NCBI GenBank assembly: GCA_958009085.1
Contig: OY253683.1
Span: 558,001-622,000, forward strand
DNA from: Protoeuglena noctilucae
Lineage: Eukaryota
DNA length: 64,000 nucleotides
Direction: 5' to 3'
A program made the position numbers and the translations under genes. Each line of letters starts with the position of its first letter. Within the stretch, counting starts at the first letter, position 1. Positions 19,459-64,000 of the stretch are shown here, one piece after another. The notes beneath the pieces were generated by a model. The model made no database searches, was not told where the DNA came from, and saw only the letters and a list, made by a program, of their open reading frames with translations.

Positions 19459-22400
19459 TCAGATGGCCTTCTGCGCCTTGAGCGCGTGGCGGAGGACCGC
19501 GAGGTTCTGCGTGACCTTGTCCCGGTTGCGTGGCTCGAGCGTCAGCTGCACGTCGTCCATGACCTTGTCCAGCGCGTTGCGCACCGTGGCCTGGCGCTCC
19601 GGCCGCTGGGACGCCACCAGCTGCTCCTTGACGTCCTGGAAACCGCGCTCGTTCAGCAGGATGAGGGGCAGGACGGGCCGGCTCAGGCTCCACTGGTTCG
19701 TCACGTCCTCGAACAGCGTCGCCTCCAGCAGCGCCCTCAGAATGGTCGGGAGCGCCGTCGGGTTGTCCTGCGCCACACCGGGGCCTCCCTCACCGATTAC
19801 ACGCCCTCAAGCCCGCATCACTAAGTCAGGCAGCCGCCCACAGCCCGGGGCCCGGCAGCGCAGCACTGGTCCTCGCCTGCAGGTGCGTCCCCAGCTGCTG
19901 CGCCTCCCTCGGCACGTCCTGCTCCTCCACGTCCACCACGTCCTGCCCCCGCGTCATGGCGTTGAAGTAGAAGGAGAGGAGGCTGTCGATGGCCGCGGCG
20001 CACTGGCTGCTCACGTTGGTATCCAGGGACTTGAGCCCCGCCTCCAGCGACCGCAGCAGGAACCGGAACGTCTCGGTGTCCGCCGCTGCCATGACCCGCG
20101 TGTGGTTGTGGCACAGGACCTGGGAAGGGGCAGAGGCGAGACGTGGGTCCGAGCGGCACAACAAGGGATTCAATGCCTGTCGATCCCAGAGCCCCGGGGC
20201 GCCGTCGCTGGGCACCGCACCTCAATCAACTGGAAGTACGCCTTGCCGACCTTGCGATAGGCGAGGATGCTGGCGAGGGGCACGAACAGCGCCATCTTGA
20301 GGGCCATCGAAAGAGCGTCCGACAGGGCTGCGGGGAAAGCGAGAGGGTGGTCCTGCCAAGGCGCCCGACTGACGCGGGCGTGACTGGCGACGCGCCTGCC
20401 CAGCCTGCGCCGCACCGGGGTCCCCGTACAGGCCAAAGACGCCGAAATTGACGTAGTTGCCCGCCAGTGCCCGGTGCAGGATGGTGAGGCAGATCCAGAT
20501 GCCCTTGTATCGGTGCGTGTAGACGTCCGAGCCCTCAAAGGGCGTCAGGGCGTGCCTGCGTCGCAGCACTCGAGCTGTGTTTGTCAGCAAGAGCACCTGG
20601 CAACCCGGAGCGGTAGCCCTGCGTTGTCTGGAGCGAGCGAGCCACAGCGGGAGGGCCTATTGCATTGCGCATCGCGTGCCCCCGCGTGCCTCTGCGACTC
20701 GCCTTCCGTACGTGACGAGGGCCTTGGACACCTCGCGGAAGAGGAGGATGCCGCTGGCGGAGCTGGCGTCGAAGGTGATGCGCTGCGTCTTGTTGGACGC
20801 CATCTCCGCCAGGAACTTCAGGAGCGGGGTGGTGACGTCGGGGACGTCCGCAAAGGCCTCCAGGCTGCGGAGGATGATGGGGAAGCGCCGGGGGTAGAGC
20901 CAGTCGAACACGGCCATGTAGGTGCGCCTCGAGTTGGTGGCCGACACGATGCCCCTCAGGTCGCGGAAGAGCCCCGACAGCGTCTCCTTGGGCACCGCCT
21001 GGCGAAGCGCTGCGACCGTGGGGCCCTCCTTCTCTATCGCCAGAAGGAGCCTGCGGGGGAGCACGGGAGAGAGGAATCAGCACTAAGGGTTCACTCAATC
21101 AACGGCATCGCTCACGCACGCCGCCAGGGCCGGAGGCGTCTTCGACACGACCGCGTCGCTCATGCGCGCCGCCAGGGCCCAAGAGCCCGTTCACCTGTGC
21201 AGGGGCAGGACGAAGGTGCGGAACTTCCCGGGAGAGTCTTCGAGGAAGAGGAGGCGTGCGAGGGTGGAGTAGTAGAGCGTCCTCCAGCGGCTGTTGGAGG
21301 GGTCTTTCAGGAAGCCAAAGTAATCCGCGGTGTGGTTGGTGAGGATGAACTGGGAGCCCTCGAGCTTCAGGAGGAGCTTGCCACTCATGTACCCGTCGCT
21401 CAGGTCCTTGAACAGCTCCAGCGTTTGCCCGATCACCGTCTCGCTCGACCTGCGGGCGCGTGCGGGCGTTGCGGTCAGGGTGGAGCGATCGTCAGCAAGG
21501 GTCCCAGTAATCATCTCAAAGCCCTGCGCGCCCGTCCACCTGTAGGACTGCAGGTTCTTGGCGATCTTTTCCAGCATGACGGACAGGACGGCGAGGTGGT
21601 TCTGGAGGCCCAGGCGCTCGGTGAGTGCCTGGTAGACCTTGCTGGCGTGCATGGCCTGCTCGCCCACGTAGACCTTCCGGAAGCCCTGGAAGAAGGACAG
21701 GATGGCGGCGTCCAGGCGCTGCCGGGAGGGCTCGGCGTACCGCGTGGCGTGGAATCCGGCGTCGCAGCTGGTGAGGAGGACGAGCACGGAGGAGGCCAGG
21801 GCGCCGTCCAGGGGCTCCTGGGAGTCGGCGGCGGAGCTGGTCAGGCGCCCGCGGATGACGGCGCCCACGATGAGGCAGAGCCACGTCAGCTGGCCCTCCA
21901 CCAGGCTGGCCTGCTCGGGCGTGGCCCCCGTCTGCGCCATCTGCTGGTACTGCGTCACGACCGGGCCCATCACGCCCTGCAGGAACGCCGCCGCCTTCTC
22001 GTACTGCGGGCAACGATGGCGGGACACGTCTGGTCAGACAGAGGGGCCCCCAGGACTTGCACGGCAGGGTCAGGCCCCCGCCAAGTCAGCCCCAGCGCTC
22101 GCCTGGAACCGGAAGAGGAAGGGCAGCGTCTCCATTTGCTCCGCGATCTGCTCCTCGCTGTCCAGGGGGTCCTCGAGCACCGCCCCGCCCAGCACGGCCG
22201 CCACGCTCTCCAGCCGGGACTGGACATACCCCTCGACTATGTCAGGCACGAAGCGGTCGAGGAGGGAGGGGCGGTCGCCCTTGAGGTACGGCACGCTGGA
22301 CACGAGCCGCGACCAGAGGCCGAGGAGGTAGAAGATGCTGGCGGCCGCCCACTGCCAGCTCTGCAGGGACGAAACGGTGAGCTTGGCCACCAGGGCGATC

Positions 22401-23903
22401 CACTCGGGGTAGCAGTCCACGGCCACGATCTCGCCGAGCTGGTAGTTGGTCTTGAGGCGCCCCAGGAGCCGGCAGAAGTTGTGGTAGTTGTCGTGGTCCC
22501 CCAGTCCCTGGCTCGTCTCCAGCACCCGCAGCGTGCTCTGCACCAGCGTGGCCACGAAGGCCTGCCGCTGCGGCTCGCCGGAGAAGAGGCTCCGCCGCAC
22601 GGACGCGAGACGCACGAGGCAGTCCAGCGCCGTGCAGCTCAGGGGCGGGGAGGCGGCCGCATATAGGTCGAGGAAGAGCGTGATGAGGGTCGTGTCCTCG
22701 ACGAGAGGGCGCCAGGACGAGGGCACCTGGATGGCCCCCGTGTCCTCGCTCGACTCGTCCACGCACGTCCCCACAAAGTCAAAGCTCAGGCACGCCTGCG
22801 CCAGGCCCAGCTGCGTGCAGGGCAGGGAGGGCGGGGCTGCTCTGCCGGCGGATGGAACCGCGGACAGCACCGGCCCGTGGGGTAAGCGCCGACTCGCTGC
22901 AGGCTTATGGCGGCCACAGTGGCTTGCTTTGCGAAACTCAGCCTCACCAGGACTTCCCGCATGGCCTGCTGGGAGGGGCCGGACTGGTGGAGCTGGCGGA
23001 GGTACTGCACGGCGAGCTGGAAGATCTTGAGGAGGGCGAGATCTCGGAAGGACACGGCGACCTTGCGGTGCTCGGAGAGGGACCGGTTGGGCGTGGGCGC
23101 GTTGACCTCGTTCACCACGTGGGTGAGGAGGCGGAGGCCGAGCATCAGGTGAGGCACGGACCCGGAGTCGAGGAACTTGGACGCGTCCTCCACCACGTGC
23201 CTGTGGCGGTCGTCCTCGAACCAGCCCAGCTTGGTGATGCGCGCCAGCAGGGTGCACGTCTTGGTCACGACCCACGCCTCCATGGACGGGCCCTTCGTGG
23301 AGATGACGTCCAGCAGGAACTGGCGCAACTCCGCGCGCATCGACACGGTCATCGGCTGGTCCGACACGAGCCGCAAGAGGCTCGAGGCGACCATCATCTG
23401 GGCGTACGGCGAGGACGTGCCCCGGAGGATGGCTTGGCACTGTGGGACATAGTCCAGCGATTGGGAGAAGACCGCCAACGACGTCTCCGCCTCGGCGCGC
23501 ACGGCCGGGTCTGCGCGGGCGAACAGGAGGGAGCGTGGGCAGAGAACTGGTGCCGACCGCAATCCTGGCGACCCAGGGGCGCACGCGATGCACGAGGAAT
23601 GACGAGGCCGGGCCATACATCCTGAACGAGTCATCGAGGGGACCGCCCCGTCTCCACGGCGAGACGGAGCGGGGGAAGCTCCCCGACGATGGGCCAGTTA
23701 CCAAGCCTTCTCCGCAGCCCCTCGCTCAGCGGACGCGGAGCGATGACAGGCCCCCGTATTGAGACATTGCCCCCGGGATCGGGCGCATGGCTCCCCGGGA
23801 TCGATGAGAATGGCTCACCATGGGCTACGTAGAGGCGTTCGCAAGCAACCTCCAGATCCTGAAGGCTTGCAAACCCGTTTCCGTTCTGCATCTCTCCCCC
23901 CAA
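19459..23903 (-). CDS. XPO7: Exportin-7 / Ran-binding protein 16/17
   Basis: LEVACERLY, ITKLGWF, HRKVAVSFRD, CLSFDFVGT..DESSED, LVRLASVRRSLF, NYHNFCRLLGRLKTNYQL, RITFDASSASGILLF, NQWSLSRP, NRDKVTQNL; about 10 introns. Confidence 0.95.
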
Positions 23904-24547
23904 TCAATCAGAGAAACCCCTGCGGGGCTCCTCACGGCGCAGGTCGTCCTCTCGGCTGCAGCATGCGTCCCCTTGCGACCCCCTCAAGAAAAGACGGCCA
24001 TCTCGCCGCCCGCCACCCGATCTCCGCGCTGGCCAGTATCTCGCGCGGCCAAGGATCAGCTGTTTGAACGCCCGAGTGTGCGACGGAGTAGTGATGCAAC
24101 CATGCGTCCGATACAACCACGCGTCCGCTGTCTTCGCACGATTATCAATCAAGTCTCGGCGAAAGAACCAGAAGTGTGTTGTCTTGACGTCAGTGCCAGC
24201 AGGGTAAGCCGGGTTGCTCGGAAACCACACAAGCTCGGGGGCCACCGTCGTTGCTCCAAGCCCTCGGGACGAAAGGTAGTCGGCCAGGGGAGAAAGGGTC
24301 TTGTCGCGGCTTGGCTCTATTGCATTTCGATACCCTGCGCCCCAGCGAGGCCTGAATAGGTCCGGCCTGGCTGTAGGCCGAAGCCTTTGCCGCTTACCGA
24401 CAACCGGCACTTGTCTCGTCTTTCCTGGGGCGGGGGCTGGCCTGAGCGGGCTGCGGCTCATGCGGGCCTGGAGCCCCGCGCTGCCACCCCCGCCGGGCTC
24501 GACGGCGCCGCATTTGCCGGCCTACCTTCTGCTCGATGAGAACAAGA

Positions 24548-26771
24548 TGCCATCAGAGGTTCGAGAACAGGTACGCGGCGCTGGACGGGGCGCACGCCGC
24601 ACGCCCGCCTCGGCGCTCTGTGCAAAAGCCTGGACCTTGATGCGCGTGCGCTTTGCAGGAGGCGACAGCAGCACGTCCAGTGGAGGGGGAGTTGGCGGAA
24701 GCCCACGTGGATGTCGAGTCTGCACCAGCGGCCGCGGGGGCAGAGGGCATCAGGGCTGTGGGCGACGGGGGGGACGCCGGACCACCTTCCATAGGGGGCG
24801 TCATTGCTGCCGGGGCTTCGTTGGGGATGCGTGTCGCAGGGGGACTCGGCCGCGTGGCCCTGGGCCCGCTGCGGCTGTTGCGTTCCGCGCTGGCGCCGCC
24901 GGCCACGCTCGCTGCCAAGGTCGGGCTGCTGGCGGTAGTCCGGGCGGTCGGGGGGGGTCCCGGTCGCGTGCTTCACGCAGCCGCGGTGCTGGTCCCCCTG
25001 GTGCAGCGGGCACGCCGTGGGCGGGGTGGGCTCCCGTTGCCAGGGCATCTGGGAGCCGCGGCGGGCGTGGCGGGGGCGTTGCTGCGGGACGCCCACGGCG
25101 CCGCGGTAGTCTTGGCGGCACTAGACGCCGTCGCGCGCCTGCGCCGGGGCGCAGAGGCGGCTGCGTCGCCCCGCACGAGCGACGACGGCTCGCTCGCAGC
25201 GGGCCCGAGCAAGATGGCCCTGCTGGTGCTCAGCTACAAGCACGTGGTCCAGCGCCTCAAGCGCCGCCTCGCCGCGCTGGGGGCTGTGCTCCCCGCGGAC
25301 CGCTTCGACGCCACGGACGCCGAGCTCGTCCGCTTCTTGGTGGCGAGCGACCTGTTGGCCAAGGCATCCAAGGAGGACCAGATCGACGCCGTGGTCGATG
25401 CAGCAGCCAAGGCAAGGCGGGGTGCCTCGCGTCGTGGCTGATTCAGGCGTGCAATCGCCGAGGCAGAGGATCGGTGCGCCCCGTGCCCCCGCAGCGCATT
25501 TTGGACGCGGTGGGCTGGCGGGAGGACTATCCGTTCATGGGCCGCATGGGCCGCAAGCGTTGGAAGCGCTACGTGCACTACCACAGGCGCGACAGGGCCG
25601 GGCGCCCGGTGCTCTTCGTGGACTTCGACCGCGCCTCCCACGAGGTGCCTCCCTCGGCCACGAGCGAGCTGGTGCGCGCCATTCTGTCCCAGGTCGAGTA
25701 CGGCGTCAACACCAAGCTCGGCGACGGGGCGCACCGCTCGGAGCAGCTCTGCGTGGTGGTCAAGTGCACCGAGACATCCATCCTCAAGGCCAACCGCATC
25801 CTCTCCATCCTCCGGCCCACGGTCCAGGCCCTCCAGCGCGCCTACCCCGAGCGGCTCGGGGAGCTCTTCCTCGTCGGCATGCCTGGCGTGATCGGGGCGG
25901 TCGTGGGCATGGTCAAGCGGCTGCTACCAACGCGCACACAGGCGACCACAGCGCAGCTCCCATGCTGCGTGACGCGGCCCTGGCGCGAGGCGCGTTTGAC
26001 GCCGGCGCACGTGTCTCGCCCGCAGAGCAAGCTTTATCTGGTGAACCAGTTCGACCCGCGGCTGCCGCCGCTCCCGGGCGTGGGGCCGGGGCCCAAGCGG
26101 CACCCGGCGACACCTGGCACCCCGGGGGATCGCGATCGCGCAGTGCAGACGGCCGCGTCGATGCCCATGCGGCCTCGGGGGAGCATCGCTGCGGCGGGCC
26201 CCTCGATGCGTGCGGCGCTTGTCCCGGGGGTTGAGGCGCGAGGTGGGCAGCGCAGCGAGCGGCCAGACACACAGGCGGGCCTGAAGGCGATGCGCAGGTG
26301 TAAACGATAGCCGCTTTCCGCGCGCAGAGCGCCGCGCCGGCCGCGCCGCCACCTTCAACGTGCGCCTGCGTGGGAGCACCGAGGCGTCGAGCTCCCGTGG
26401 CGCCCACCGCCGCCTGTCCTTCGACGATCCTGCCGTGGTAGCCAAGCATGTGGACGACACGGACGAGTACAGCGACGCTCTTGAGATGGACGGGGTGGGC
26501 CCCAGCAGGCAAGCTCTGCGGGTATACAGCCAGCTGGATGCATGGTGGGCTTGCGGGTGCGAACCGCAGCCGTTGTGTTCGCAGGGTGTTCGGCTCCCGC
26601 GCCCAGGGCCCCCACACGGACGGATGGCCTTCCGCCGGGCCACACAGCCACGAGCTCCTGGCGTGGCAGGTCCACGCGCTGGACGTGGGCCGCACAGGAA
26701 TCACTGCGTTTGCCATGGGGCTCCTCTTCTATCACATCGCCATCCAGATGGGGCTTCATCTCGGAGGCTGA
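24548..26771 (+). CDS. CRAL-TRIO (Sec14-like) lipid-binding protein with probable C-terminal TM anchor
   Basis: DAELVRFL, DRAGRPVLFV, LQRAYPERLGELFLVGMP...VKRLLPTRTQ|SKL; final exon GITAFAMGLLFYHIAI reached through a GC donor at 26509. Confidence 0.8.
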
Positions 26772-29700
26772 TAGGCGTGCAGTGCCTTATACTTAGAGGG
26801 TAAGACGCCCATCACTGTCTTAATTGCAAGAAAACAGCCAGTACCCTACCGAGAGTACGTTCTCAATTCAGATCATCAGACAGTCTCGCATCGTGTCATC
26901 AAAGTGGAACTCGCGGGATACACCGAGGCCCAGCAAATAGCGCGCCTTGGTTTCTGAATGAGGCCGGCATTGTGACGGCGCGTGTGATTTAAGCTGTCGC
27001 CGCCTGGCGGTCTCTCTACAGCCCCCTGTCTACTACTGGCAGTAATATCTCCATATCCTTGCCGCCGGCACCGGGGACACGGCGGGCAGAGATGGCGCAC
27101 CGGCAGGTCCTCGCTCCCCTGGCCTTCTTCATCCAGGAGGGGATGCCGCGGCACATCACCGTCGCGTGCACGGAGGCAAGTTCATGATGGCGCTATCGGA
27201 GCGTCGCACGTGGCCCGGGAGCTGCGATGCGCCCCTGATGCGCGCTTTAGAGCTGTTCCCATGGCTGCGTGTGGGGGCGTCCCCTGCGCAGTGCGGGGGA
27301 TGAGCGAACCGACTGACCGTCATTCATCGGTTCGCAGGTGCTGAAGCAGCTCCGGAACGACCCGACAATGCGCCTGTGGCAGACGGTGGCCAAAGGGTGC
27401 GTGACGAGACACTCTGCGGCCTTTTTCGCGAATCCCCGATCGCTAGCGACCGCGCCGTTGCATACCGCGTTTACTGCGTGTCTTGACCGCAGAGTGGAGG
27501 GCCGCGGGGACGAGGCGCTGCGCGACCTGCGCCTGCTGGAGCAGGACAGTCTCGTTGGGCCTGCAGCCATGGCCGCGTCCCTCTACATCCACCAGCAGTC
27601 GCTCATGGTGGACAGTGAGGCCATCGCGCGGCTACAGGTGGGCAGCGCGAGGATGGTCGCTTGCGCTCGTATCTGTGCCCCCCCTGCGAGTGTACAGCAT
27701 GTGGATGCTTCGCCAACATGCGATGTGCAGGGTGACCTCGAGATGTTGGAGAGCTCGGCGTCGGACGAGTCGCGAGTGGAGCTGGCACGCGTTCACTGGT
27801 GCTACGGCCAGCGGGAGCGCGCCCGGGGTCTCCTGGAGGACGTCACGCTCCTCACCTCGAAAAACGTGCCGGCCCAGTCCCTGCTCGGCTGGGTCATCCT
27901 GTCCCAGGTGCTGCGTGGAGAAGCCTGCCGTCGCTCGCAGCAGCGTCTTTCCTGTCCCTGCTGGGTGTGACAGGGGCCCACTTGCTGTGATGTTGTGATG
28001 TAGACCTTGCGTACTGTCCCAGCTCAGCGACGCCACACGTGTGTATGTCGCAGGTGGAGTCTGGCGCAGAGGAGCACGTGGAGGGAGAAGACCCTATGGA
28101 GGACGCGGCGAAAGCCCTGGACAGCGCGCTGGCCGCGTCGGACCTGGACGCAGAGGCAGCCCTGGGGCGCGTGCGCCTGTACCGCCTGCAGGGTCTCGCG
28201 GCGGAGGCCCTGTCGCTGCTCGCGCAAGTCATCGCTCGCTACTCGTGGCTCGTGCCCGCGGAGGTGGGCGTGCATGCTTCCAGGCCCCATGCCTGCCCAG
28301 CTGCGGTGCAGAGCAACGACTGGGCCGGTGCAGATTCAGACTGTGCACATCTGCAACATTCCCTTCGCAGGTGGAGCGCATGCGCGTGTTCCTGGGCGAG
28401 GTGCGCTGGGAGGAGGCCCTGGAGTCAGCGCAGAGGGCGCTGCAGGCGGACGACACCAACGCAGACGCCCTGGCCATGCTCGCCCTGTCGTCCGCAGCCA
28501 AGGACGGGCGCCTCCACGTCGCAGCTCGGTACCTCGGTGAGAGTTCGAACTGCGCTGACTCGTCAGCCTGGCTATGCATTGGCCACCGCCCTGTGCCTGG
28601 CTCACGCAGCAACATCCCACTCCCCTTCTGCAGGCGACTTGCTCGCGGCGTTGCAGACAGCTGAGCCCCGGCAATGGCGTCTGCTGTCCGCGGCTGGCGC
28701 GGCCTTCGCGAAGATGGCCACGCACGACGAGGACCTGGCCGCGGCGGCGCGGCAGCTGGCGGAGGCGGGCGTGCGTGCCGCCCCGCAGGAGGCCAAGGCT
28801 CAGTCGGCGATGGCCGCGTGCCTGCTCGCGCTGGGCGACCACGAGCGGGCGCTTGCGCTGTACAACCGCGCCGCGGAAGCGGACGTGGCGGATGTGGGCG
28901 CCATGACGGGGGGGGCGCGGTGCTTGGTGCTGCTGGGCCGCACGGAGGAGGCGCGCATCAAGGTGGACGGCCTCATCGAGGGTTTCCGCTCATTCCAGGC
29001 GACCGACGCAGAGATCATGGCCGTGGCGGGCGGCGGGCAGGGCCCCGAGGTACCCAAGCTGGAGGGCATGGGACTCGCGGAGCAGGCCACCCTGTACTAC
29101 CTCCGCGCCGCGCTGTCGTGGCTGGCCGTGCAGGAGGGCGCCGGAGAATCAGCCGAGTCGGAGGTGAGGAGCGGTGATCTCACTTCTTCTGGGACCTCGG
29201 CCATGTGGTCCCTGCTAGCACCGAGGGGTGCCTTACCGTTACGTGGGCGAAGGGCAGCGGCCATGGTGAACAGCTCTTCCCCTTCCTCGCGCAGCTTCGC
29301 GTGGCTTACCTGGAGCAGGCCATGGTGTGCTTAGGGAACCTGCTGAAGACGCACCCGGTCTCGCTCCAGGCAGCGGCCGCGGTGGACACCTCTCTGTGCC
29401 TGGACCTGGCGCTGCTGATGCTGCAGCACGTGGCGGGGGAGCCACTGGGGCAGGGGGAGGCGGCGCTCCGAGAGGTCGACCTGACGACGAAGGTGGCTGG
29501 GGGTTGAGAGCGTTCACTGCATATGGCGTTATGAGCAACGAGCTGCCAGAGGCTGGTATGCAACTTGTGCCCCTGTGATCGTCGCCCTGGCTTCCTCCCA
29601 CTCCCACGCAGCACTTGCAACGACTGTCGAAGGTCTTCCCCGGCCACCCCGGGATCCAGTGCTTGTTGGCCACGTGCTTGCTGATGTCTGGGTCCACCGA

Positions 29701-30815
29701 CGCAGCCATGAAGAAGGCAGGGGTGGTGCTGCTGAACTCACCGGAGGTCGCTGACGCGCACCTGATCGTCATCCGTGCTCACCTACAGGACAAGGTGTGC
29801 GCTGTGCTCAGGAAGGCAGCAGTGGGAGTTGCTGGGCTCGGGACGGGGCAGAGTGTTTTAATATCAGATGCATCCTGCTTCTGCTGTTCAGAACACGGCT
29901 TTGGCGAGGAAGGCGCTCGACGTGGCCGTGGCACAGAGCTACAAGATTCGTCTGACGCCCCAATACCACATGTCCATGGCGCGCTTGCTGCTGAGGGAGC
30001 GAGACGCCGCCCAGGCACTCAAGTTCCTGCAGCAGGCCGAGGTGAGACGAGGCAGACCCACGCCCGTGTATCTCTGCTGCGCCGGTCCCGCTGCGATGCC
30101 TGAACCAGCTTCCGGCCCATGCCTTTGCAGAAGATGCCGGGGATGCGTGGCCGGACCCTCCCGCGCGTTCCCGGCAGCAAGCACGGGGCACCGCTGACGC
30201 TCCACGACAAGACTACGGTGCTTCTGCTCCAGGCGGATGCCTTGAATATCCTGGGGAAAAAACCTGAGGCGCAGAAGATCCTCGCCAAGGCTGCGAAGGT
30301 GGGCAGTGCTGTGGTCTTTGGAAGTGCTGCCTTCCTGGGAGCGTCATGTCTCACTTGGCATGCTTGCATCTGTGGCGCAGGAGGCCGCAGGCACGCCGGA
30401 GGAAGTCATCGTGGCGCTCGCGAGCACAGACATGAAGATCGCCAATGGGGACGTCTCCGGTGCTATGCGGTGACCAGCGCAACAGACCTTAGAACTGCCT
30501 TTGGTGCCGCCGTGAGCATGATACGCGGTGTGACACATGCGCGTGCACCCTCACTATTACTCTGCTCTCTCCTCCCAGGGACATGGAGGCTGTGCCCCCG
30601 ACGTCGCCGCTCTTCATCCAGGCCCGCACTGCCCTGGCGCGCATCTACCTCGACAAGCGGCGCGACCGGGCGGCTTACACGAAGTGCTACCAGGACATCA
30701 TCGACCGGTTCCGGGACAAGCGCTCCTACATGCTGTTCGGCGAGGCCATGGTGCACATCCAAGAGCCCCTCAAGGCCGTCGAGGCGCTGAAGGAGGCCCT
30801 CAGGCGAGTGCGGGC

Positions 30816-30906
30816 TGCGATGAGATATGGTGGCAGATGGACCCAGATTGTGAAGCCGCACTGTGATGAGGTGTTATGACAGATGGACCCCGATTGTGAA
30901 GCCGCC
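30816..30906. repeat. Imperfect tandem duplication of about 45 bp inside an IFT139 intron
   Basis: Two copies sharing CAGATGGACCC(A/C)GATTGTGAAGCCGC within intron 30804-30929. Confidence 0.75.
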
Positions 30907-31185
30907 ATCAATGCGTCTCTCGCCTGCAGGCGCGATCCCCGCGACGCCTCGCTGGCCCTTCGCATCGGGGCGGCCCTGGTCGCGACACACGACTTCGAGG
31001 GCGCGGTGTCGTACTACGAGAAGGCAGTGAATGCGAACCGGGGGAACGTGGAGCTGCAGCTGGAGCTGGCTGGCCTCCTGGCACGGGTGGGGAGGGGGCG
31101 GGCGGCGCAGCAGATGCTGCAGCCTTTCAGGTGTGATGAAGTGACGCAATGCATGGCGATGAATCTGCTGGCGAATTCCACCTCT

Positions 31186-31226
31186 CCACACCTGTTTCAC
31201 CCACACCTGTCTCACCCACACCTGTC
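31186..31226. repeat. 15-bp minisatellite, about 2.7 copies, intronic
   Basis: CCACACCTGTTTCAC CCACACCTGTCTCAC CCACACCTGTC. Confidence 0.8.
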
Positions 31227-33075
31227 CGTTGCCCGTTCTCTGCAGGGACGCCCAGGGCTCCGTGGAGGCCATGCAGGCACGGGTCAAGGCGCTGTGTATT
31301 CTGTCTGACCTGGAGCGGCGGCAGGGGAACGCGGTTGCGCAGATCGAGCTGCTCGGGGAGGCGCTGCGGGGGCAGGAGGCGGTGGTGGAGGCCGTGAGGG
31401 GGGAGCCGGCGGAGGTGGTGGCAGCGGAGAGGCGGGTGGCGGCAGACCTCGCCTTCCGCATCTTCAGGGAGAGGGCGGACCTCGGCGTGGCTCAGGACGG
31501 GATGGTCGCGCTGCGAGAGGTGCTGCAGCGCAACCCAGCACACCACCAGGCGGGCCTCGCCATCGCGCGCATGCACCTCGCTGCCGGGGACGTCAACGCG
31601 TGCATGACGCAGTGCGAGCACCTGCTCACGGACGGTGAGATCTCTTGCAAAGGGTGCTAGATACAACTGCGTTGTGCGGCCCACCCAAGCAACTTTGGCT
31701 GGGTCATCTCCCGATGCAGATGACGGGGATGAGGAGGCGTCGATGCTGCTGGCCGAGGTGGCCGCGATGCAGGGAGACGTGGAGCCGGCGCTGGGGCGCT
31801 TCCAGGTCATCCTGGCCCGCAAGCCGGACCACTTCCGCGCTCTCTTCCGCCTTCTGGACGTGCTCAAGCGCACGGGCAACCTGGCGAGCGCCAGCGACTA
31901 CCTCGAAGCAGCGCGGCACGCCTCGCCCCGCACCGCCACCTCGGCTGGATACCAGACCTGCGAGGGGGCCCTACACCGCAGCTGCAACCGCCCGCAGGCG
32001 AGGTGCTGCGCGTGTGCGTGGGTTGGCATCACACAGCCCGCTGTGGGCTGTGCGACTCATTTGCAACCATTGTCTGGCTGCAGGAGGCCCTCCGCTGCCT
32101 GAACCGCGCCCGTGGCGACCCCGAGTGGGGCCGCGACGCCACGTACATGATGGCGGACATCTACCTCGATCCCAACAGCGAGCGCCTGTGGGCTGCTGCC
32201 GGTGATGACGAGGACAGCATCCCCGACAACTTCCAGGCCGCTGCCTCTGGGGAGAACCTGAAGGCGGTCGCCGAGCTGCTGGCCACGGTCCGCCCAGTGG
32301 CCTCGCGGGCCACGGTCCGGCACAAGGTGCTGGAGGCATACACACATATGGCTTCCGGGGAGAAGGCGGATGCTGAACAGGCACTCAGCGCGCTCCTCGA
32401 CCTCGCGAACAAGGCGAGGGCCTGCTGGCTGCCCTGGGCCCCAGTCATACTTCCCCCCGTCATGCCTCTGCTGGAGATCTGTGCTTTAGCACTCAACTGC
32501 TGGCCCTGTCTGCAGGACCGGGACCACGTGCCGACGCTGCTGGCCATGGCCACGGCGTTCATGCTCCTCCGCCAGAAACCCAAGGCGCGCAACCAGCTCA
32601 AGCGTATCGCCAAGATGCCGTACACTCCCGAATACGGCGAAGACTTCGAGGCGAGCTGGCCTGGCGTTGCCGCAAAGCCGTGTCGACGTCGGGATGCTTG
32701 GACGCAAAACTCCCACAGCTTCCGCCCGCCCTCGCAGAAGGCGTGGCTGTCGCTGGCGTCCATGCATCTGAAGGGCGGCAAGTTCGACCTGGCCCAGGAG
32801 CTGTGCCAGAAGTGCCTCAAGTACAACCGCTCGTGCGCCCAGGCGTGGGAGCTGATGGGGCAGATGCTCGAGAAGGAGGGGGCGTACAAGGTGTGTGTGC
32901 TTCCGAGTCAATAACAGCTGCTGCGGATGCCGGCCACGACAGCACCCAAGAACTCTCAGCCTCTCAGCTGTCTCTCTCGACTTCGCCAACCGCAGGATGC
33001 GGCTGAGCACTACCACCACGCGTGGGACCTGGTGCAGGGCGCAAGCGCACAGAGCGGCTACCGGCTCGCGTTCAA

Positions 33076-36584
<3,509 letters not shown>

Positions 36585-36959
36585 GATGACTGCGACGAAA
36601 AGACGCGGCGATGCCCAGACACGACGCTCAGTGGTCACTGCGGTGGCCCCTCTGACCTTGCAATAGTATTACTGGCCGTGCCACAAAGCCCGATGTGTCC
36701 AGACACGGCCGACCTGACGCACGCAGCTGAGGAGGGTCGCGCTGGCGGGCCCAGGCGAGGACAGCGCAATGAAGAAGACCTACCTGGCTGCGCAGTGCCA
36801 GCGACACCGTCCCCTGGCTTGAGATGGGACCGGGCGCGCTCACCTCCTCACAGCCCGGGGAGTTTGCCGCACAGTTGAGCCTCGCCTGTCTTGGAATCCA
36901 CGAGCGCAGCGAGCGGGAGGAGGGGTTTTTAGGGCGCGGGGTAGAAGGGGGGCCGCGAA

Positions 36960-47329: not shown

Positions 47330-49009
47330 ATGCCGCCGAGGAAGGCAGCGAAGAAGGTCGATGAGGACGACGACCTGTCCGCGGAGGACCTCGGGTCGGA
47401 TGCGTCTGACTTCGAGGAGGAGAGGCGCCGGAAGCCCGCGGTGCGTGCGCTGGACGCGCTGGCTTCCCCGAGGGCCGGACGGGGCCCATTTCGCCACGCC
47501 GCTCGCGACGATTCTGCTCCCGTGCCGATGCGCAGAAGAAGCGCGCTTCCAAGGCCGGGGAGTCCAAGGCCCGGGGCACGCTGACCGAGGGCTGGGAGGC
47601 GGTCCCGGACTGCCTGATTCTCGTGCACAAGGACCCCGAGATGCCGCCTGCCGACAAGGTAGCGGCGTTCGACTTCGACGCGACCCTCGTCACGACTAAG
47701 TCGGGCGTCTTAGTGCCCAAGGACGAGCACGACTTCAAGCTCGTCAACAACCACGTCGGGGAGAAGCTCAAGGCAAGGCGACTCGAGCCATATGCCGAGT
47801 GCGGCATGTTCGTGGCATAGCGGTCCACCGATTCGACGGACATGGGCCCCGTCGCCCCCGACCCATGCAGGGCTTTGTGGAGGAGGGCTATGCCATCGTC
47901 GTCTTCACCAACCAGGGATCCATCAAGACGGCCCTCACAGGCGAGTGATAACGCTGACCTCCTGCATGTGCGCGCCTTCAGGGGTGGCGGGGGCAGCGGG
48001 GGTGACCGTCTCTCGCCCCGCACCCTGCAGGCAAGGCGGCCAACAAGCTGACCAAGCGCATGGACAACGTTTTCTCCGAGCTCGGCATCCAGCACTACCA
48101 CGCCGTGATGGCCACGGCTGACAAGAACATGGAGAGCAACTTCCGGAAGGTGGGCAACTCTGGGCGACTCTGGGCGACTTGTGACGTGGGGGTGTGCCGT
48201 ATGTCCCTCCCAGGGGTCGCTGATGCCGGCCCTGCTGGATGGATGCCTGCAGGGTTCGGGGACGGGCATGTTCGACTACTTCGTCGAGCACATGAACGGC
48301 GGGGTGCGCCCGGGGGAAGGGTCGTTTTTCGTGGGGGACGCGGGCGGGCGCGAGGCCGACTTCGCTGCCACCGACAAGGAGTTCGCCGAGGCGTGCGGGC
48401 TCGAATACAGGACCCCCGAGGACGTCTTTGGGGAGATCAAGGTCAAGAAGCAGGCCCTGCCTGGCGCGGGGCAGGCGGTGCTGCGGGGCGAAGAGAGCAC
48501 GGGGCCCAACGCCCCCCTGGTCAACATGATGCAGGTGCGTGGGGGACGCCGCAGCGCCGAGTCCGACCCCGAGCGGGGACTGACGGGGTTCTCGCCGGTT
48601 CTCTCCGCAGCAATACCGCGAGCTCTGCTTCAAGTCCCAGAACCTGGACCCCAAGCTGAAGTTCAAGGGCATCGCCCTCGGGAAGGCCATCAAGGGCATC
48701 GAGAGCGTGCCGCACGCGATTACGAGCGGCAAGGAGGCGCAGGTGACGAGCCTGGCGCTTGCACCCACAGAACCGAGTCGACGTGCCTGCCTTGGCTCAC
48801 GCATGGGTCGCGGTTGGCCTTGGCGCCCACAGAAGATCCAGGGCATCGGCAAGGGCCTGGGCGAGGAGATTGACCAGTTCCTGGAGACGGGCTCCTTCCC
48901 CAAGATGGAGAGCCTGCTCGAGCAGGCGGGCAAGGGGCCCGGGTCGCCCGCCATCAAGAAGAAGTTAGAGGAGAAGGCCAAGGAAACGGGCGCGTTCGAT
49001 TTCGTGTAA
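47330..49009 (+). CDS. Polynucleotide (DNA) 3'-phosphatase (HAD, PNKP/ZDP/Tpp1-like) fused to a Pol X-type 8-kDa HhH domain
   Basis: KVAAFDFDATLVTTKSG, IVVFTNQG, FRK|GSGTGMF, SFFVGDAGGREADFAATDKEFA...GLEYRTPE; C-terminal ITSGKEAQ|KIQGIGKGLGEEIDQFLETG. Confidence 0.88.
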
Positions 49010-49143: not shown

Positions 49144-53078
<3,935 letters not shown>

Positions 53079-54572: not shown

Positions 54573-57171
54573 CATGTCCGTCGAGCCCGAGCTTTCCCAC
54601 GGCGTCGCCGGCTGCGATCCCGTGGACGCAGCCGTTCCGCTTTCGTCAGGCTCCCCTGCGTCCGTCGTGGAGGTCGCCGCTGCGGCCCAGCCGGCCTGCA
54701 CGCCCCAGGACCTCGCCGACGCCGCGTCCCCGAGGTCCGAGGGCCAGCCAGCGTCGGGAGACGTCGTTTGCACGCCAACGAAGAAGCGCGTCGCCATCAA
54801 GTGAGCCTCCGGGCTCTGCGGGCGCCGTGACCTTTCGAGCTGGGGACCGTCACCGGCCCGGTGCATCGGCATCTCATGCTCCTTGACCCTGGCTGCTGTC
54901 TGCTTTCGCTCTGCAGTGAGGGAGACGCAGGGAAGGACGAGCCAACGTCTCCGGGGCTGGCCAAGGGCAAAGTGGGCCGCTCCTTCGCCCGACACGTTGC
55001 GGCCCAGAGCGAGAGGTACGGGCGCTGGGCGCGCGTCCCTCTCCTGCAGTTGCGCGTATGTCAGTAACGCCCACCGCAGCGTACGCGTGCGTCGCTGAGC
55101 GCGTGCTCGTGCTCGCGCGCAGGGGTGTGCTGCACGTCCTGCTCGACCAGCTGGTCAAGTTCGGCATCATCATGCTTGCTTGCTCTCCTTTCATCGGCGG
55201 CATTGCTTGGGCTGTGCCCAACGCCCTGTGCAAGGTTCCTATGGAGCAGTCCATGGCAAACGGCGGCGGCGGCAGCGGCGGCTTCTTCGACTGCCTGTAC
55301 ATGAAGCACATGGACTGGAAGGGGGCACCGACCCTGACAACGCTGGTAAGTGCATGGGTCACAGTCCGGGGATCGACAAGATGCCGTGACTGACCGTGGG
55401 CGGGTGCGTCGTGGGGGTCATGCTGCTGTATGGGTGCGTTGCCCCTCCCCGCAGCTGATGCTCTTCTGGGCCATCACTTACACGTATTCCGCCATGGCTC
55501 CCACTGTCGCCCTCATCGCCATCTTCGGCATCCGCAAGTTTACGCGCCGGGAGATTGTCAGCCAGAGCGTCATGGCTGTCCTCATGTGCGCCATCACGGT
55601 CGGCTGCATCCTGTCAGGCGAGTGACATTCCGCCGCTCGGATGTCTCGTGAAGGCCGCCTCGTGTTGGGCTCCTTCTCACGGACCCCCGCCACCCGGCAT
55701 CGGCGTCATGCAGGCATCGACGCGGACACGCAGGGCCCCCTCGGGAGGTTCCGGGGCGGGTACGTGGTGCTGCAGTACGCGCTTTCGGGCGCGATGGTGA
55801 CGCGCATGACCGGCGAGGGGAAGCTCTTGGGCATCCAGGTGCGTGGCTGTGCGGCAGGGTCTGCGCGGGCCCCTATGCCGGCCGTGGCTGTGGCGGACGG
55901 CATCTCACGCAGTCGACAACCCACGCTCGCAGTACTTCCTTTGCTGGATCGCCCTCGCCGGCATCACCTTCATGTACTCCATGATTCTCCCGACGATCAT
56001 CACCGCCCGGGCCACCGTGCCCCAGCTGGGGATCTTCGCGTTTGTCGTGCACCCCGCTATGTTTGGCGCTCTGACGTTCATGTTCCGCTTCCTCGTCCAA
56101 AAAGTGAAGATCAGGGAGCTGCGGTCTGTCAACCTCATCACAGGTGCGCTGGTGCCCCTGCACGACTGAGATGAGCGAGCACGGGGTGACCCGCAGTGCT
56201 CTCAACATGCCGCCCCTCCCTCGCAGTGCCGCTGTACCTGTCGACGCTGTACGCGCAGTTCCTCCTCCTCCAGCTCAACAACGCGGGGTCCACCTTCGTC
56301 ATCAGGGCCATCATTCTCATGGGATCCCTGGCCATGAAGTGAGGGCAGGCGCCTTGCCCCACAACTAGCGGGCGAGCTCTGCCCGCACGTCCCACACAGC
56401 CCGTGCCCCTGCTGCCCGCAGGTTGCTCATTCGCTCCAACGGCGCGCAGCAGCTGATCACCACGGAGGGCAAGCGCGTGGCTGAGGTCATGCAGGCCACG
56501 CGTGAGGACCTGGAGGACACGCTGGCCGAGGACTTCTCCTTCCACGTGGCTGACATGCTGTCCGTGGTGGCCAACACCCTCTTCTACTGCCTCGGGAACG
56601 TGGCGTCCGCGCCCGGGCAGCTCTCGTCCGCTTGGTCCAACGTCAACCAGGCGCTGGTGCAGGTGCGAGGGTCAGCGGCCTGCGAGGCGGCCACCGACCA
56701 CCGCCTCGGCGTCATGCCTGCCGCCCCCGCCCCGCCCCCAGCTCCTCGTCATCGCGCTCCAGATCGTCCTCGGCCTCCTCATCGACCGCTACGTCCACCA
56801 GGTCCCCGTGGCGGAGCTGTGGTCCCAGATGAAGCCCCGCACCATCGCCTTCTTCACCGCCGCTCTGTGCCTGGGCCTCGTCGGCGAGGTCCCCAAGCTC
56901 TTCCTCCTCTTCTGCCCCAAGTACTACCCCGAGGTGAACGGCGAGCCCGGCATGCTGGCCCCTCGCCCTCGGCCGTCACACACAGGCATGACCGCAGCGA
57001 TGGGCGCGCCCGCCCCCGCAGACGGGCGTCATTCTCGAGTACTGCAACAAGCCTTCCCTCGCCCAGTTCCCCATCCTCCTCAACCAGCGGATCAACGACT
57101 CCTCCCCAGGCCTCATCCAGACCAAGTCCCTGATCGACGGCACCCTGCTCTACTCGTCGCTGAAGCTCTGA
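54573..57171 (+). CDS. Multi-pass membrane protein of unknown function
   Basis: About 9 exons with many hydrophobic helices (FGIIMLACSPFIGGIAW, LMLFWAITYTY, YFLCWIALAGITFMY, LLVIALQIVLGLLI); TGA at 57169-57171. Confidence 0.7.
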
Positions 57172-58271: not shown

Positions 58272-61200
58272 ATGCAGAGGGCTGCACTCCGCACCGCTCG
58301 GCTCGCGAGCCGTCGGAGCGCCGCGGGGGGGCATCATGGGTGTCCCCTGGCTTTCAGCGGATCGGCACAACGACGATGCCTCAGAGCGCACGGGTTGCTG
58401 GCCTCTCGGAGGACTCTCGGCTCCGGTGTGCCTCGTGGTCCGGGGCATGCAATCCTCTGCAGCGCCGCGCTCAGCAGGGCACAACGCCGCGTCTTCCCCG
58501 TCGCGCGTGTATCTTCTGCCCCTTTGGTAACATCTACTGCGGGCGATCGTGATTCGACGCGTCCCGAGGGCAAGGCGGGGATCACACCCCGGTCCACAGG
58601 TGAGCCCCGCTCCGCGCGGTCGCTGGAGGCCGCCCTGTGTGTGCGGAATGGGAGCGGACGCTGCGTATCTAAACTTGTGATGTCGCAGTGTTTCTGGATG
58701 TCGGCGGGATGAAGTGCGGGGGCTGCTCGGCGTCTGTGAAGCGCGTGCTGTCGAAGAGCGAGCTCGTGGAGAGCGCGGCCGTGAACCTGCTGACCGAGAC
58801 AGCGGCCGTGAAACTGCGGCCAGGCATCCGCGTCGACGACGCCGAGCGTCGGTTGGCGGAGCTCGTCACGAACGCTGGCTTCCCATCACAAGTCCGCCAG
58901 CAGCAAGGTCCGGATGGGGACAGGGGCGGCTTAGGAAGCGCTGCTGGGCCCGACAGCTCAGTCGCTTCCGACACGCACGCGTCCGCCTCGCGCCCGCAGA
59001 GTGGGCTTTCGAGTCGGAGGACACGGCCCAGCAGCGGAGGGAGGCGGTGCAGCGTGCCACGCGGGACGTGGTCACGGCGTGGATCCTGGCCATCGTCTGC
59101 TGCTCCCACCACCTCGGCCACATGTTCCATGCGGTAGGCCTCCACTCCCTCGCGCACTCGGAGGTCATGGGCGTCCTCGCCAACCCCTGGGTGGCGGGCA
59201 CCCTGGGCGCCGCTGCTTTGCTGGGCCCGGGCCGCGCCCTCGTCACGGAGGGGTTCCAGAGCCTCGCCCGAGGCAACCCCAACATGAACTCTCTCGTGGG
59301 CCTCGGCTGCACGGCCTCATTCGGGTAAGTGGCCCGCCGCGCCCCGGCAGCGCTCATCACAATGAAGCGGGGCATCTGTTCCTCGAGCCATCGCGCCCGC
59401 GTCCCCGCAGGACGGGCGTGGTGTCCCAAGTCGTCCCCGGAGTGGGCATGCAGTCGGGCTTCCTGGAAGAGCCCGCAATGCTTTTGGCCTTCGTCCTCCT
59501 GGGCCGTGCCTTGGAGGCCCGTGCCCGGGCCAAGGCGGCCGAGGACCTGCGGGATCTGGCGACGCTGCTGCCGAGGGAGGCCCGCCTGGTGGCGGCCGAC
59601 GCAGCCACCCCGGAGTCTCTGCTGCAGGCCGACACGCTCGAGGTGCCCACGCGGGCGCTGCGGCAGGGGGACCTGGTGCGGGTCATGCCGGGGGAGCGGG
59701 TGCCCGTGGACGGGGAGGTGCTCGCCGGGACGTCGGGTGAGGCCCGGCGCGGCAGCTGCAGGTGCTGGCTGGGAGTCTCCATCTTTTACGCGTCACTGCC
59801 TGCCCCCTGCGACCTCACGCACGCAGCCACCGACGAGTCCCTTCTGACGGGAGAGGCAGCCCTGGTTGCCAAGCGCATGGGGAGCACGGTAACGGCGGGG
59901 ACCGTCAACTACGAGGGCCCCATCGTCGTCCGGGCCACCAGCACGGGGCAGGACAGCTCTTTGGCTGGCATCGGCCGACTGGTGAGCGTCGGTCACCGCG
60001 CAGCATCGGTCGCTTGGCCTTGCTATGCTCACTGGCCGTACCTCATCGCTTTCCTCCTCATCTCCTCTGCCAGGTGGCCAGCGCCCAGAGCCGGGAGGCA
60101 CCGGTGCAGCGGACGGCGGACGTGGTGGCGGGCAGGTTCTGCTACGGCATCATCGCCGCGTCCGTCGCCACCTTTGCCTTCTGGGCTACGATGGGGGGCT
60201 CCCTTGCCCCAGGCACGTCTCGCTTCAAGGCCTGGCAATGGAAGGGTCGTAATGAGAGACGTAGCATGACGCTTTTCGACCCCTCTCTCGCAGGCATCGC
60301 GACGAGCTCCAGCTTCCTGGCCGCCAAGCTGGCCGTGGACGTGCTGGTGGTGGCCTGCCCCTGTGCGCTCGGCCTGGCCACCCCGACGGCTGTGCTGGTG
60401 GCGTCTTCGGTGGGAGCCAAGCGGGGCCTCCTCATCCGCGGCGGTGACGTCCTCGAAGCCCTGTCGCGGGTGGACACGGTCGTGCTGGACAAGACGGGCA
60501 CCCTCACCCGCGGACGCATGTCTTTGGCGGGGGTGCGCGCCCTCCCCGAGGCATCGATGACCGAGGACCAGGCAAGGAGGGGAGATACAGTGAATAAGAC
60601 CTGCGCCGTGTGAAGTGTGACGGAGGGGGCATGGCCGGTGCACCCCTCGTCATGTGCTGTCAGCTGAGGGTCTCATGCTCAAGGGCTCCCCGTCTGCAGG
60701 TGCTGGCGGTGGCTGCCAGCGCAGAGGCGACCACGGAGCACCCCGTGGCAGCCGCGGTGGTGACGGCAGCGCGGGAGCGGGGACTGCCGGTGGTGCCAGG
60801 GAGCCGCGCAATGACCGTGCCGGGCCAGGGCGTGGTGGCTGAGGTGGAGGGGTCGCTCGTGGCAGTGGGGCAACCATCGTGGGCGCTGCAGGCGGCCAGG
60901 TGCGGAGGGAGGACGCTTGAACATTCCAAGTGTATCCCCCGCGCACAGGGCGCGTCGGGATCTCCGTGACACGACGTGAACGCACCCAACTCCCCGTCGG
61001 CGCAGGTGCGGGGCGGAGGGCCCCACGGGTGCCGAGGCGGCGATGGAGGCGCTGGTGGGCCTCATGACCGGGGCTTCATCTGCCCAGACGGCCGTGTGCG
61101 TGGCCGTGGAGGGCCGTGGCATTGTCGGGGGCCTCGTGTTGACAGACGAGCTTCGCCCCGACGCACGCTGGACCGTGGCCGAGCTGTCCTCCCGCCTCGG

Positions 61201-61926: not shown

Positions 61927-62036
61927 ACTCTGGCATTTTTCTAGGTAGCCCCAGCCAGCCACCTCCTCCTGCGCATCCTAGGAATCTCTCGAGTTCTGAA
62001 TGGTTGCGCATCGTGTTGAATTGCCTCCCGTGACTC

Positions 62037-62041
62037 TGTAA
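62037..62041 (+). promoter_or_regulatory. Candidate chlorophyte poly(A) signal TGTAA
   Basis: TGTAA about 110 nt downstream of the Cu-ATPase stop codon in an AT-richer stretch. Confidence 0.4.
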
Positions 62042-62329: not shown

Positions 62330-64000
62330 CATGACCCTCTTGTGTCTCGGCGCGGGGGGCGGAGGGACGGAAGGGGGCGTATCGCGAGGCCATAAATTCG
62401 CTCTTATTCCATGGCAGGCCGCGAGCTCGCGCTACCGTGACCTCGCAGAGATTTCCCACCAGGCTACGGGGACGATGGTTTGGCCCGGGCTTTCACCGCC
62501 CCCACGGCGGCACTGTTCGGAAGGCCGGCGCCGAGCCCACGAGGGAAGACCTCCGTATCATCGGAGGCGAGGGGTGACTCTTCTCCGCCGCTGGGCCAGT
62601 CCCCAGCGCGGCGGTCAATTACGCCCCAGTCCAACCGGCCCCAGTACAGCAGGTGGGCCTTGGGGACGCGAATCGCGAACGTATGTATCGACAATCGCGC
62701 AGTGGTGGGTCGGCAAGGTCCTTGAAGCCCTCGGTCCGCACGGATGCGGGGGTAGTCGGCGTGCGCCCCTTCACGCACCCGCTGCGATCGATGCGCGCAG
62801 CACGACAGAGAGCAAGGACGTCCGAGACGATGAGGACTCGGCGGGACCGTCGGCCCAGGGCAGCGCGAGGGACATCACCCTCCGGGCCATGACCATGCGC
62901 CGCCACCGCAAGGCCGATACCATCTTCCGCTCCAAGTTCGGCATCCCGGAGGGGGAGTTATTCCTGGACGAGTACCACTGCGCGCTGCAGAAGAAGATGC
63001 TGATCCAGGCGAGGGCGCAGTCACTCGCACGGCCGACCCCTTCTCGCGCAAGGGGTGCGCGACCCAGGGCTGCTCGCCTCTTCAGCCTTCTGAGAACCCA
63101 CGCTCGTCCCGCTCGCCCCCGCGTGCAGGGCCGCATGTATATCTTCGAGCACTTCGTGACTTTCTACGCCAACATCTTCGGGGTTCAGAAGGTCAAGGTC
63201 ATGGCGCTCAAGGACGTGACGGCCGTGCGCAAGGCCAAGACGCTGGGGCTGCCCAACGCCATCGAGATCACGCACAGGGGCAAGGTCGAGTTCTTCACGT
63301 CCTTCCTGGTGAGAAGGGCCGGGGTTGTCAGGCAGACGCGGCGGCAGGCGTGCATCGGCGGGCGTCCTGCCCAGAGATGCTGGGAACACGCCGTGCCCGC
63401 GATGCTCGCGGTGCGCGTGGGCGTGACGCGCGCCCTCGCCCCCGCAGTCCCGCGACGAGGCGTACCGGGTGGTGTGCTCCGCGTGGGGCAGGACCTCCGC
63501 CTATGCCAAGCTGTACCTGGGAGCCCAGGCCCTGGGGAGCTCGCCTTCGCTCGACTTCCCCGCGGGGTCCCAGCCCCGGGCGTCCGCGCTGGGCACCGCG
63601 GGCAGCCAGGAGGGGCTCCTGCAGGGTGGGCTCTCCTCCGTCGCGGCCATGGCGGCTGCCCTGGCCCACGGCGAGACAGACCGGGTGAGGAAAGGACGAT
63701 GCCATGCGAGAAGACGCATTGAGTGACTGACGGGCGAGAGGGTGCCAATAAACTCCCGTGGTTTGGGCGGTGATGCGACTGCGGCCGAGCGGCGAGTTTG
63801 CCTGCGTGGTCCTTTGCAGGAGGACGAGGACGACGAGGGTGACTCGACGCAGAATCTGCGGTGGGCGCCCCAGCACGGGCAGCCGCCCCCGCCCCGCGAG
63901 GAGCTCAAGAGCATCGCCACGTCGACGCTGCAGTGCTCGGCGGAGACGGTGTGCAGCAAGTTCCTCAGGTGAGGGGCCAGCATGCCTGGCGCGAGTGGTA
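62330..64000 (+). CDS. GRAM-domain protein (VAD1/LAM-like), 3'-truncated by the window edge
   Basis: FRSKFGIPEGELFLDEYHCALQKKMLIQ|GRMYIFEHFVTFYANIFG...GLPNAIEI...FFTSFL|SRDEAY. Start approximate. Confidence 0.85.

Follow-up and report, generated by a model that had tools for sequence, protein, structure and literature searches.

In the window analyzed here, a stretch of 64,000 nucleotides of Protoeuglena noctilucae DNA (contig OY253683.1, positions 558,001 to 622,000), introns beginning with GC and ending with AG are removed from RNA, account for a high share of all introns and are tied to a full flanking donor consensus. Their share in the window is put at 18–27%. They are likely ordinary U2-type GC-AG introns, which are common via GC pressure and are tolerated in combination with a strong flanking pairing to the U1 small nuclear RNA (snRNA). 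We infer that GC pressure is the cause and that U1 pairing is the compensating mechanism.

The original prediction, which had been made from the sequence alone, named 21 GC donors, all of them with an exonic AG and most of them reading GCRAG. This description of the donors proved correct. The exonic AG followed by the intronic GC (AG/GC) was found on the respective strand at all 21 positions, and 19 of the 21 donors read GCRAG. The exceptions are 25942 on the plus strand (GCGAC) and 35019 on the minus strand (GCACG). The motif AGGCRAG occurs 46 times in the window compared to 27.1 ± 5.1 times in dinucleotide-preserving shuffles, and none of 100 shuffles reached 46. Of these 46 motifs, 24 are modeled donors. 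The majority of the predicted GC-AG introns (16 out of 21) lie in phase 0.

Splice junctions in RNA

For the identification of splice junctions, assembled contigs of four marine metatranscriptome runs from one study (X1 to X4) were placed on the region 19500-39499, which covers 12 of the 21 predicted sites. The four runs contain approximately one third to three fifths of the words sampled from a 10-kb stretch, which is present almost completely in DNA-type runs of one named organism. Junctions were counted from the 15 best supported of 47 joints and from 32 of 225 contig pieces. For each joint, every placement allowed by repeated bases was enumerated and the canonical readings were counted.

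Each of the 15 best supported joints showed one canonical reading, which was GC-AG in 4 and GT-AG in 11 cases. Neighboring pieces of single contigs added the introns 22004-22102 (GC-AG) and 22811-22947 (GT-AG). In addition, where pieces of different contigs begin or stop, they agree with the two boundaries of 25412-25494 (GC-AG) and with the donor boundary of 25942-26025. After the three additions from contig pieces, the RNA-supported set comprises 6 GC-AG and 12 GT-AG introns.

GC-AG introns are absent from the RNA at five full junctions and, by way of two matching halves, at 25412-25494. Three of the full junctions belong to predicted sites (19876, 22102 and 35019, all on the minus strand), and two represent GC-AG introns that had not been predicted (20556-20702 and 33441-33523, likewise on the minus strand). 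Partial RNA support was obtained on the plus strand for 25412 with its two half junctions and for 25942 with a donor half junction. The spliced reading frames are long and open in the exportin-7 gene, the PFK2/FBPase-2 gene and the CRAL-TRIO gene.

Proportion of GC-AG introns and effect on gene prediction

A census of all introns in the window was performed using a Viterbi gene finder, which combines 3-periodic Markov coding scores with matrices for donors and acceptors and a term for intron length. Training started from the exons and introns supported by RNA and was continued on the finder's own output for this window. The result consists of 16 gene models with approximately 151 introns, some of the models being merged or split. 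The model reproduces 17 of the 18 RNA junctions and has a donor at every one of the 21 predicted sites, so that these sites alone represent at least 14% of the introns (21 out of ~151).

The census was repeated with a hostile prior, in which the probability of C at position +2 was set to the plant average of 0.012 and GC donors were scored with the GT matrix. Even so, 29 of 152 introns (19%) were modeled as GC-AG, while all 21 predicted sites were kept and all 18 RNA junctions were recovered. At a prior of 0.001, the RNA-supported GC junctions begin to drop out, including the one at 25412. Among the 42 introns modeled in exportin-7, IFT139 and MCM6, the three genes with the best validation, 11 are GC-AG. 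The RNA yields a share of 4 out of 15 joints, or 6 out of 18 with the added junctions, the latter three not being unbiased picks. The original estimate of about 15% was therefore right in that the share is high but somewhat low as a figure, given 29 out of 152 modeled introns and 4 out of 15 RNA joints.

When GC donors were forbidden, the parse lost 330 score units, the exportin-7 model and another model were split, and the predicted donors shifted to GT sites 4 to 546 bases away. Only 12 of the 18 RNA junctions were recovered, all of them GT-AG, and all six GC junctions were missed. The expectation that gene predictors would mis-model such DNA was thereby borne out. The same parse bears on a reading of the GC donors as annotation artefacts, in which the true donors would be nearby GT sites or the segments would be in-frame insertions. 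For 19 of the 21 sites, a GT that could serve instead is present at a distance of 4 to 546 bases, and the GT-only parse still has open frames, which would fit such artefacts. However, the RNA contigs join exactly at the GC donors with no GT reading within the range of ambiguity, and the loss of score, the split of exportin-7 and the six missed RNA-supported junctions speak against it.

Sequence context of the GC donors

In the RNA-supported set, an AG at positions −2 and −1 was found at 6 of 6 GC donors compared to 6 of 12 GT donors (one-sided Fisher test, p = 0.05). For the full AG/G.RAG context, the difference was more pronounced with 5 of 6 GC donors versus 0 of 12 GT donors (one-sided Fisher test, p = 0.0007). 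The compensation by a stronger flanking donor consensus, as originally proposed, is supported by these numbers. Under the hostile prior, 24 GC and 11 GT donors were modeled in the full context. This corresponds to 69% C at position +2, which is close to the C/(C+T) value of 67% in the window. In all weaker contexts, 5 GC donors stand against 112 GT donors. In length and composition, GC and GT introns are alike, with a median length of 100 and 97 bases and a GC content of 66% and 67%, respectively.

U1 pairing is a compensating contact in the major spliceosome, and the GC-AG introns of plants and animals show a stronger flanking donor consensus. The window has a GC content of 68%, with 89% at the third codon position of coding sequences (GC3) and 67% in introns. 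A mutation or gene-conversion pressure toward G and C would replace T by C at donor position +2, and the spliceosome would tolerate this C only in the presence of full U1 pairing, i.e., with the exonic AG at −2 and −1 and RAG at +3 to +5. Position +2 would thus be almost free at full-consensus donors, and GC pressure would fill these free sites with C, while weaker donors would keep the T. The role of GC pressure as the driver, which was also part of the original prediction, is plausible in view of the base composition of the window and its coding GC3, but as a cause it is deduced from this composition.

The GT donors mostly begin with GTG and often read GTGCG. A G was found in position +3 in 101 of 116 and a C in position +4 in 32 of 116 donors, which represents a GC-shifted consensus.

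U12-type introns, some of which have termini other than GT-AG, carry the donor RTATCCTT. The GC donors of the window differ from these, as they lack RTATCCTT and fit the U1 consensus. Eight RTATCCY motifs were found in the window, none of them at a modeled GC donor. A perfect U12-type donor motif (ATATCCTT) is located at 27053 on the plus strand, 39 bases upstream of the modeled start codon of IFT139. Another U12-type motif, at 37200, is part of an exon confirmed by RNA, which shows that chance matches occur.

Comparison of the junctions with homologous proteins

For the homology analysis, 150 modeled exons were scanned against Pfam, with a relaxed threshold for 63009. In a second test, the five GC introns of IFT139 and two of MCM6 were each replaced by the best GT alternative or by retention, and the resulting proteins were aligned to homologues (6 full-length ones for IFT139 and 10 for MCM6).

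The Pfam positions continue exactly across the junctions at 22102, 31998, 32651, 35854, 47773, 50971 and 63009 and within one position at 32414. In the IFT139 test, which comprised five GC introns and six homologues, the GC reading scored higher in all comparisons except for one tie. The continuity across GC junctions and the preference for GC over both the GT alternative and retention are further arguments against annotation artefacts. In favor of such artefacts, six of the predicted introns could be translated without a frameshift or a stop, their length being a multiple of 3.

In total, 5 of the 21 sites have RNA support, 10 more have solid homology support, 2 are approximate (47941 and 60572), 4 are given by the gene model and none was refuted. 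The predicted GC donors can be regarded as real. For 41902, 26509 and 55618, neither the Protein Data Bank (PDB) nor Pfam with a relaxed threshold provided a usable match.

Individual GC-AG introns

The exportin-7 gene on the minus strand contains three of these introns. In 19768-19876 (predicted donor 19876), an RNA joint was found in X1, X2 and X3, with cag/GCGAGG..AG as the sole canonical reading and an open reading frame (ORF). The intron 20556-20702, which had not been predicted, is joined in the same three runs with the sole canonical reading aag/GCGAGT..AG. The third intron, 22004-22102 (donor 22102), is documented by adjoining pieces of one X2 contig (record 5) and by Pfam TPR_XPO7 positions 34/35 across the junction. 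Its read-through would contain 2 stops, and an unspliced contig is present in X4.

In the CRAL-TRIO gene on the plus strand, two predicted introns were found. For 25412-25494, contig pieces stop at 25409 in X1 and start at 25493 in X2 and X3, which are the left-normalized ends of this intron, and the ORF is open. For 25942-26025 with the donor GCGACC, X2 and X3 pieces leave at 25938, the left-normalized donor end, and the acceptor is predicted by the model. The putative intron 26509-26584 on the plus strand, likewise predicted by the gene model, has a length that is not a multiple of 3, so that retention would shift the frame.

The IFT139/TTC21 gene on the plus strand carries five predicted GC-AG introns. 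The first, 27176-27337, is preferred over the GT alternative at 27161 in 5 of 6 homologues with one tie, and its retention would lead to 4 stops. For 30804-30929, the GC reading scores 27 above the GT alternative in all six homologues, and retention gives a stop. The intron 31998-32083 connects Pfam ARM_TT21_5th positions 89/90 and prevails over the GT alternative in 6 of 6 homologues. The last two, 32414-32515 (ARM_TT21_C within one position) and 32651-32737 (ARM_TT21_C 95/96), prevail over both the GT alternative and retention in all six.

Two peculiarities were observed among the contigs placed on this part of the window. In X1, a contig carries an additional C after position 27021. In X2, a contig that connects 28170 to 36232 by way of 14 foreign letters is probably an assembly chimera.

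In the PFK2/FBPase-2 gene on the minus strand, the intron 33441-33523, which had not been predicted, shows an RNA joint in all four runs with the sole canonical reading cag/GCAAGG..AG. For 34929-35019 (predicted donor 35019, reading GCACGC), an RNA joint with one canonical reading was found in X1, X2 and X3, and the ORF is open. The intron 35765-35854 (donor 35854) connects Pfam 6PF2K positions 110/111. At 35478-35764 the model splits this gene into two, and the RNA places an acceptor at 35477. Between the exons, a gap of about 16 positions (146-161) is left in the 6PF2K profile, which indicates that the model lacks a small exon or a further donor.

Further downstream on the plus strand, the gene model places a putative intron at 41902-41986 in a TFIIS_M/SPOC-like gene, the retention of which would shift the frame. 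The gene for a PNK3P phosphatase, also on the plus strand, contains two predicted introns. The first, 47773-47870, connects PNK3P positions 39/40, and its read-through gives a stop. For the second, 47941-48030, the read-through leads to 4 stops and the Pfam fit is approximate.

In MCM6 on the minus strand, the GC reading of 50285-50368 (donor 50368) prevails over the GT alternative and retention in 10 of 10 homologues, and MCM_lid is roughly continuous. Around 50882-50971 (donor 50971), the Pfam MCM match runs to position 119 and, after an exon of 19 residues, continues with 139; the GT alternative scores lower in 10 of 10 homologues. A third, putative intron of this gene, 52952-53051 (donor 53051), follows a first exon of nine codons in the gene model, and the homologue alignments begin downstream of it.

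The remaining predicted introns are located on the plus strand. In the gene for a membrane protein of no known family, the gene model suggests a putative intron at 55618-55713, whose read-through gives a stop. For 60572-60699 in the gene for a copper-transporting P-type ATPase, the exons on either side align to neighboring regions of CopA (solved structures in the PDB) with an overlap of 2–3 residues; the GT alternative would remove 13 residues and the read-through has 2 stops. The intron 63009-63128 in a GRAM-domain gene connects GRAM positions 30/31, the upstream match being weak (E = 0.08).

Four further putative GC-AG introns were modeled outside of the predicted sites. Three of them were kept under the prior of 1.2%: 3742-3851 on the minus strand (gag/GCGAGT) as well as 15375-15495 (aag/GCGAGA) and 17881-17982 (cag/GCGAGC), both in a subtilase gene on the plus strand. 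The fourth, 60213-60293 (plus strand, cag/GCACGT) in the copper ATPase gene, is uncertain, as the E1-E2_ATPase positions overlap by approximately 8.

Origin of the window and related exportin-7 genes

A search with an exportin-7 exon revealed solely green plants and green algae as the best named relatives, with identities of 59–66%. Chlorophytes and streptophytes are about equally near to this exon, and a metagenome protein reaches 73% identity. Further genes in the window code for a chloroplast-type copper ATPase, an ACT-repeat protein and IFT139. The window is read as nuclear DNA of a marine, GC-rich and intron-rich alga of the green lineage. Prasinoderma, which has a GC content of 69.8% and is equally distant from chlorophytes and streptophytes (PMC7455551), was considered as a source but is not claimed, since the protein searches revealed no named protein of near identity. 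Mamiellophyceae, Chloropicophyceae and Pseudoscourfieldia are unlikely sources, as they are described with less than one intron per gene and a GC content of at most 65% (PMC13213038).

For the comparison of intron donors between relatives, metagenome contigs were scanned with the exportin-7 exon. Four loci were found, in which introns were placed by tblastn boundaries. One of these loci (L002; 73% identity, 75% GC) has four exportin-7 introns, and one of its donors reads AG/GCGAG, with no GT in the surrounding 40 bases. For comparison, nine exportin-7 introns were modeled in the window and none was found in L003 (50% identity, 45% GC). The only intron position common to the exportin-7 genes of the window and the relatives has GT in both. 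Judging from these boundaries, the GC donor type seems to be common to a GC-rich relative. The comparison of orthologous donors, which the original prediction had suggested as a check, revealed the donor type in a relative and a single common intron position, which has GT in both. The loci L001 and L002 have a GC content of 71–75%, and their intron positions are largely not in common with those of the window gene.

No spliced protein of the organism was found among the protein matches to the exportin-7, IFT139 and MCM6 queries, and the MCM6 homologues included none from a close named relative. The only protein entries for this DNA, P0121 (window positions 27991-29331, plus strand) and P0145 (approximately 52000-52700, minus strand), are contiguous ORF-style calls running through introns. 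P0121 has a length of 418 aa, includes intron-encoded stretches and is uninformative on splicing.

The first 12,000 positions of the window differ in composition, with a GC content of 71–75%, which is above that of the rest. On the minus strand of this part, a protein of approximately 2366 residues was modeled, in which Pfam detects a protein kinase domain at the C-terminus and nothing else.

Evaluation of the possible explanations

Several points weigh against ordinary U2-type introns under GC pressure as the explanation. The RNA consists of environmental metatranscriptome contigs of one study and not of the organism's own reads. In X4, unspliced contigs of low depth (4-5) span 22004-22102 and the GT intron 28537-28633 and reach into 25412-25494. 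The census and the ratio of 24:11 originate from a gene finder trained on the same window, and this model made at least one false GC call, at 37551, a weak donor, where the RNA has a GT donor at 37536. Two of the 29 GC introns (647 and 332 bases, with poor donors) are probably due to merged genes; without these doubtful long introns, approximately 27 of 150 introns are GC-AG. The share is known from one 64-kb window, and the evidence at 26509, 41902, 53051 and 55618 consists of the gene model. The match of the C share to the base composition may be a coincidence (n = 35), and the splicing machinery is assumed to be unaltered.

The unspliced X4 contigs are located at 21713-22142, 24305-25468 and 28512-29002, and spliced forms occur in the other runs. 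They represent either intron retention or DNA carry-over. They are not GC-specific, because the GT-AG intron 28537-28633 is likewise spanned in X4.

In a stronger form of the explanation by U1 pairing, position +2 would be unread as soon as the other seven U1-contacting positions match, and the choice between T and C would follow the base composition (24:11). In a bolder version, U1 or U6 would have been modified so as to accept C. This stronger form is considered rather improbable. If it were true that +2 is unread, the window would offer a natural titration of the U1 base pairs needed by the spliceosome, and its GC-AG share would exceed all others known from the green lineage.

An altered splicing machinery that prefers GC and does not merely tolerate it is given little credence, and the variant U1/U6 system that the original prediction had offered as one possibility is not required to account for the donors. 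An example would be a U1 snRNA with a G in place of the A opposite +2, which pairs with C and wobbles with U. Changes in the U6 ACAGAGA box, Prp8 or U1C could have a similar effect. C exceeds T at full-consensus donors (24 versus 11 modeled and 5 versus 0 RNA-supported), and the same donor type occurs in a relative, both of which would be expected. However, GT is still found in the large majority of donors (123 of 152 modeled introns and 11 of 15 RNA joints), and GC is nearly absent at weaker donors (5 versus 112). Such an absence is predicted by tolerance, whereas an altered U1 should permit GC there. Furthermore, the C share at full-consensus sites equals the base composition but does not exceed it. 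Searched against Rfam, neither the window nor the exportin-7 loci of the four relatives gave a match of any kind, snRNAs included.

It is quite unlikely that selection, and not drift under GC pressure, maintains the GC donors as weak, regulated sites of introns that are prone to retention or alternatively spliced. This idea could be linked to the unspliced X4 contigs, which overlap two GC-AG introns, and to Emiliania huxleyi, for which GC donors were reported alongside high intron retention (PMC4028052). On the other hand, the GT-AG intron 28537-28633 is unspliced in X4 as well, the GC introns show no pattern and are located in housekeeping genes (e.g., MCM6, exportin-7, IFT139), and they match GT introns in length and GC content.

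The least credible reading, annotation artefacts, gains something from the unspliced X4 contigs but has been disproved at 15 of the 21 sites and can practically be dismissed.

Comparison with other algae

In the haptophyte Emiliania huxleyi, which has a GC content of 65%, about 60% of the donors are GC, and this was ascribed to the GC content of the genome (Feldmesser et al., 2014; PMC4028052). The E. huxleyi donors were backed by expressed sequence tags (ESTs), RNA-seq and reverse transcription PCR (RT-PCR), and gene models based on GT-AG were found to be wrong (PMC4028052). As in the window, a GC-rich marine alga has retained its AG acceptors. The difference is that GC is the main donor (~60%) in this haptophyte, whereas in the window, which is read as green-lineage DNA, it reaches approximately 18–27% and is almost limited to full-consensus donors.

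For the pelagophytes Aureococcus anophagefferens and Pelagomonas calceolata, 14–17% of the introns were predicted to be GC-AG, which was likewise ascribed to the GC content, while a relative with lower GC has 0.32% (bioRxiv 10.1101/2024.10.30.620910). The elevated share in a GC-rich marine alga is common to both pelagophytes and the window. In contrast, these two species are intron-poor stramenopiles with 0.19–0.92 introns per gene and the figures are annotation-based, whereas the window has about 150 introns in 16 models.

The mean GC-AG share in 121 plant genomes including algae is 1.2% (Pucker and Brockington, 2018; PMC6310983). The introns of the window belong to the same class as the GC-AG introns of plants and animals, and their share is approximately 15–20 times the plant mean. 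The unusualness originally claimed for the window was overstated, since shares of 14–17% in pelagophytes and about 60% in E. huxleyi had already been published. In the open literature, judged by listings and excerpts, no report of an elevated GC-AG share in a green alga was found, nor any paper on GC-AG introns in Prasinoderma.

With the window, a green-lineage alga joins the haptophytes and pelagophytes in which GC-AG introns reach tens of per cent. Predictors restricted to GT-AG would shift, split or truncate many gene models in this genome. The additional case from the green lineage supports the view that a high genomic GC content repeatedly drives the change of T into C at donor position +2. 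The sharp dependence of this change on the flanking consensus provides a simple rule for the balance of U1 pairing against the mismatch at +2, which can be tested genome-wide.

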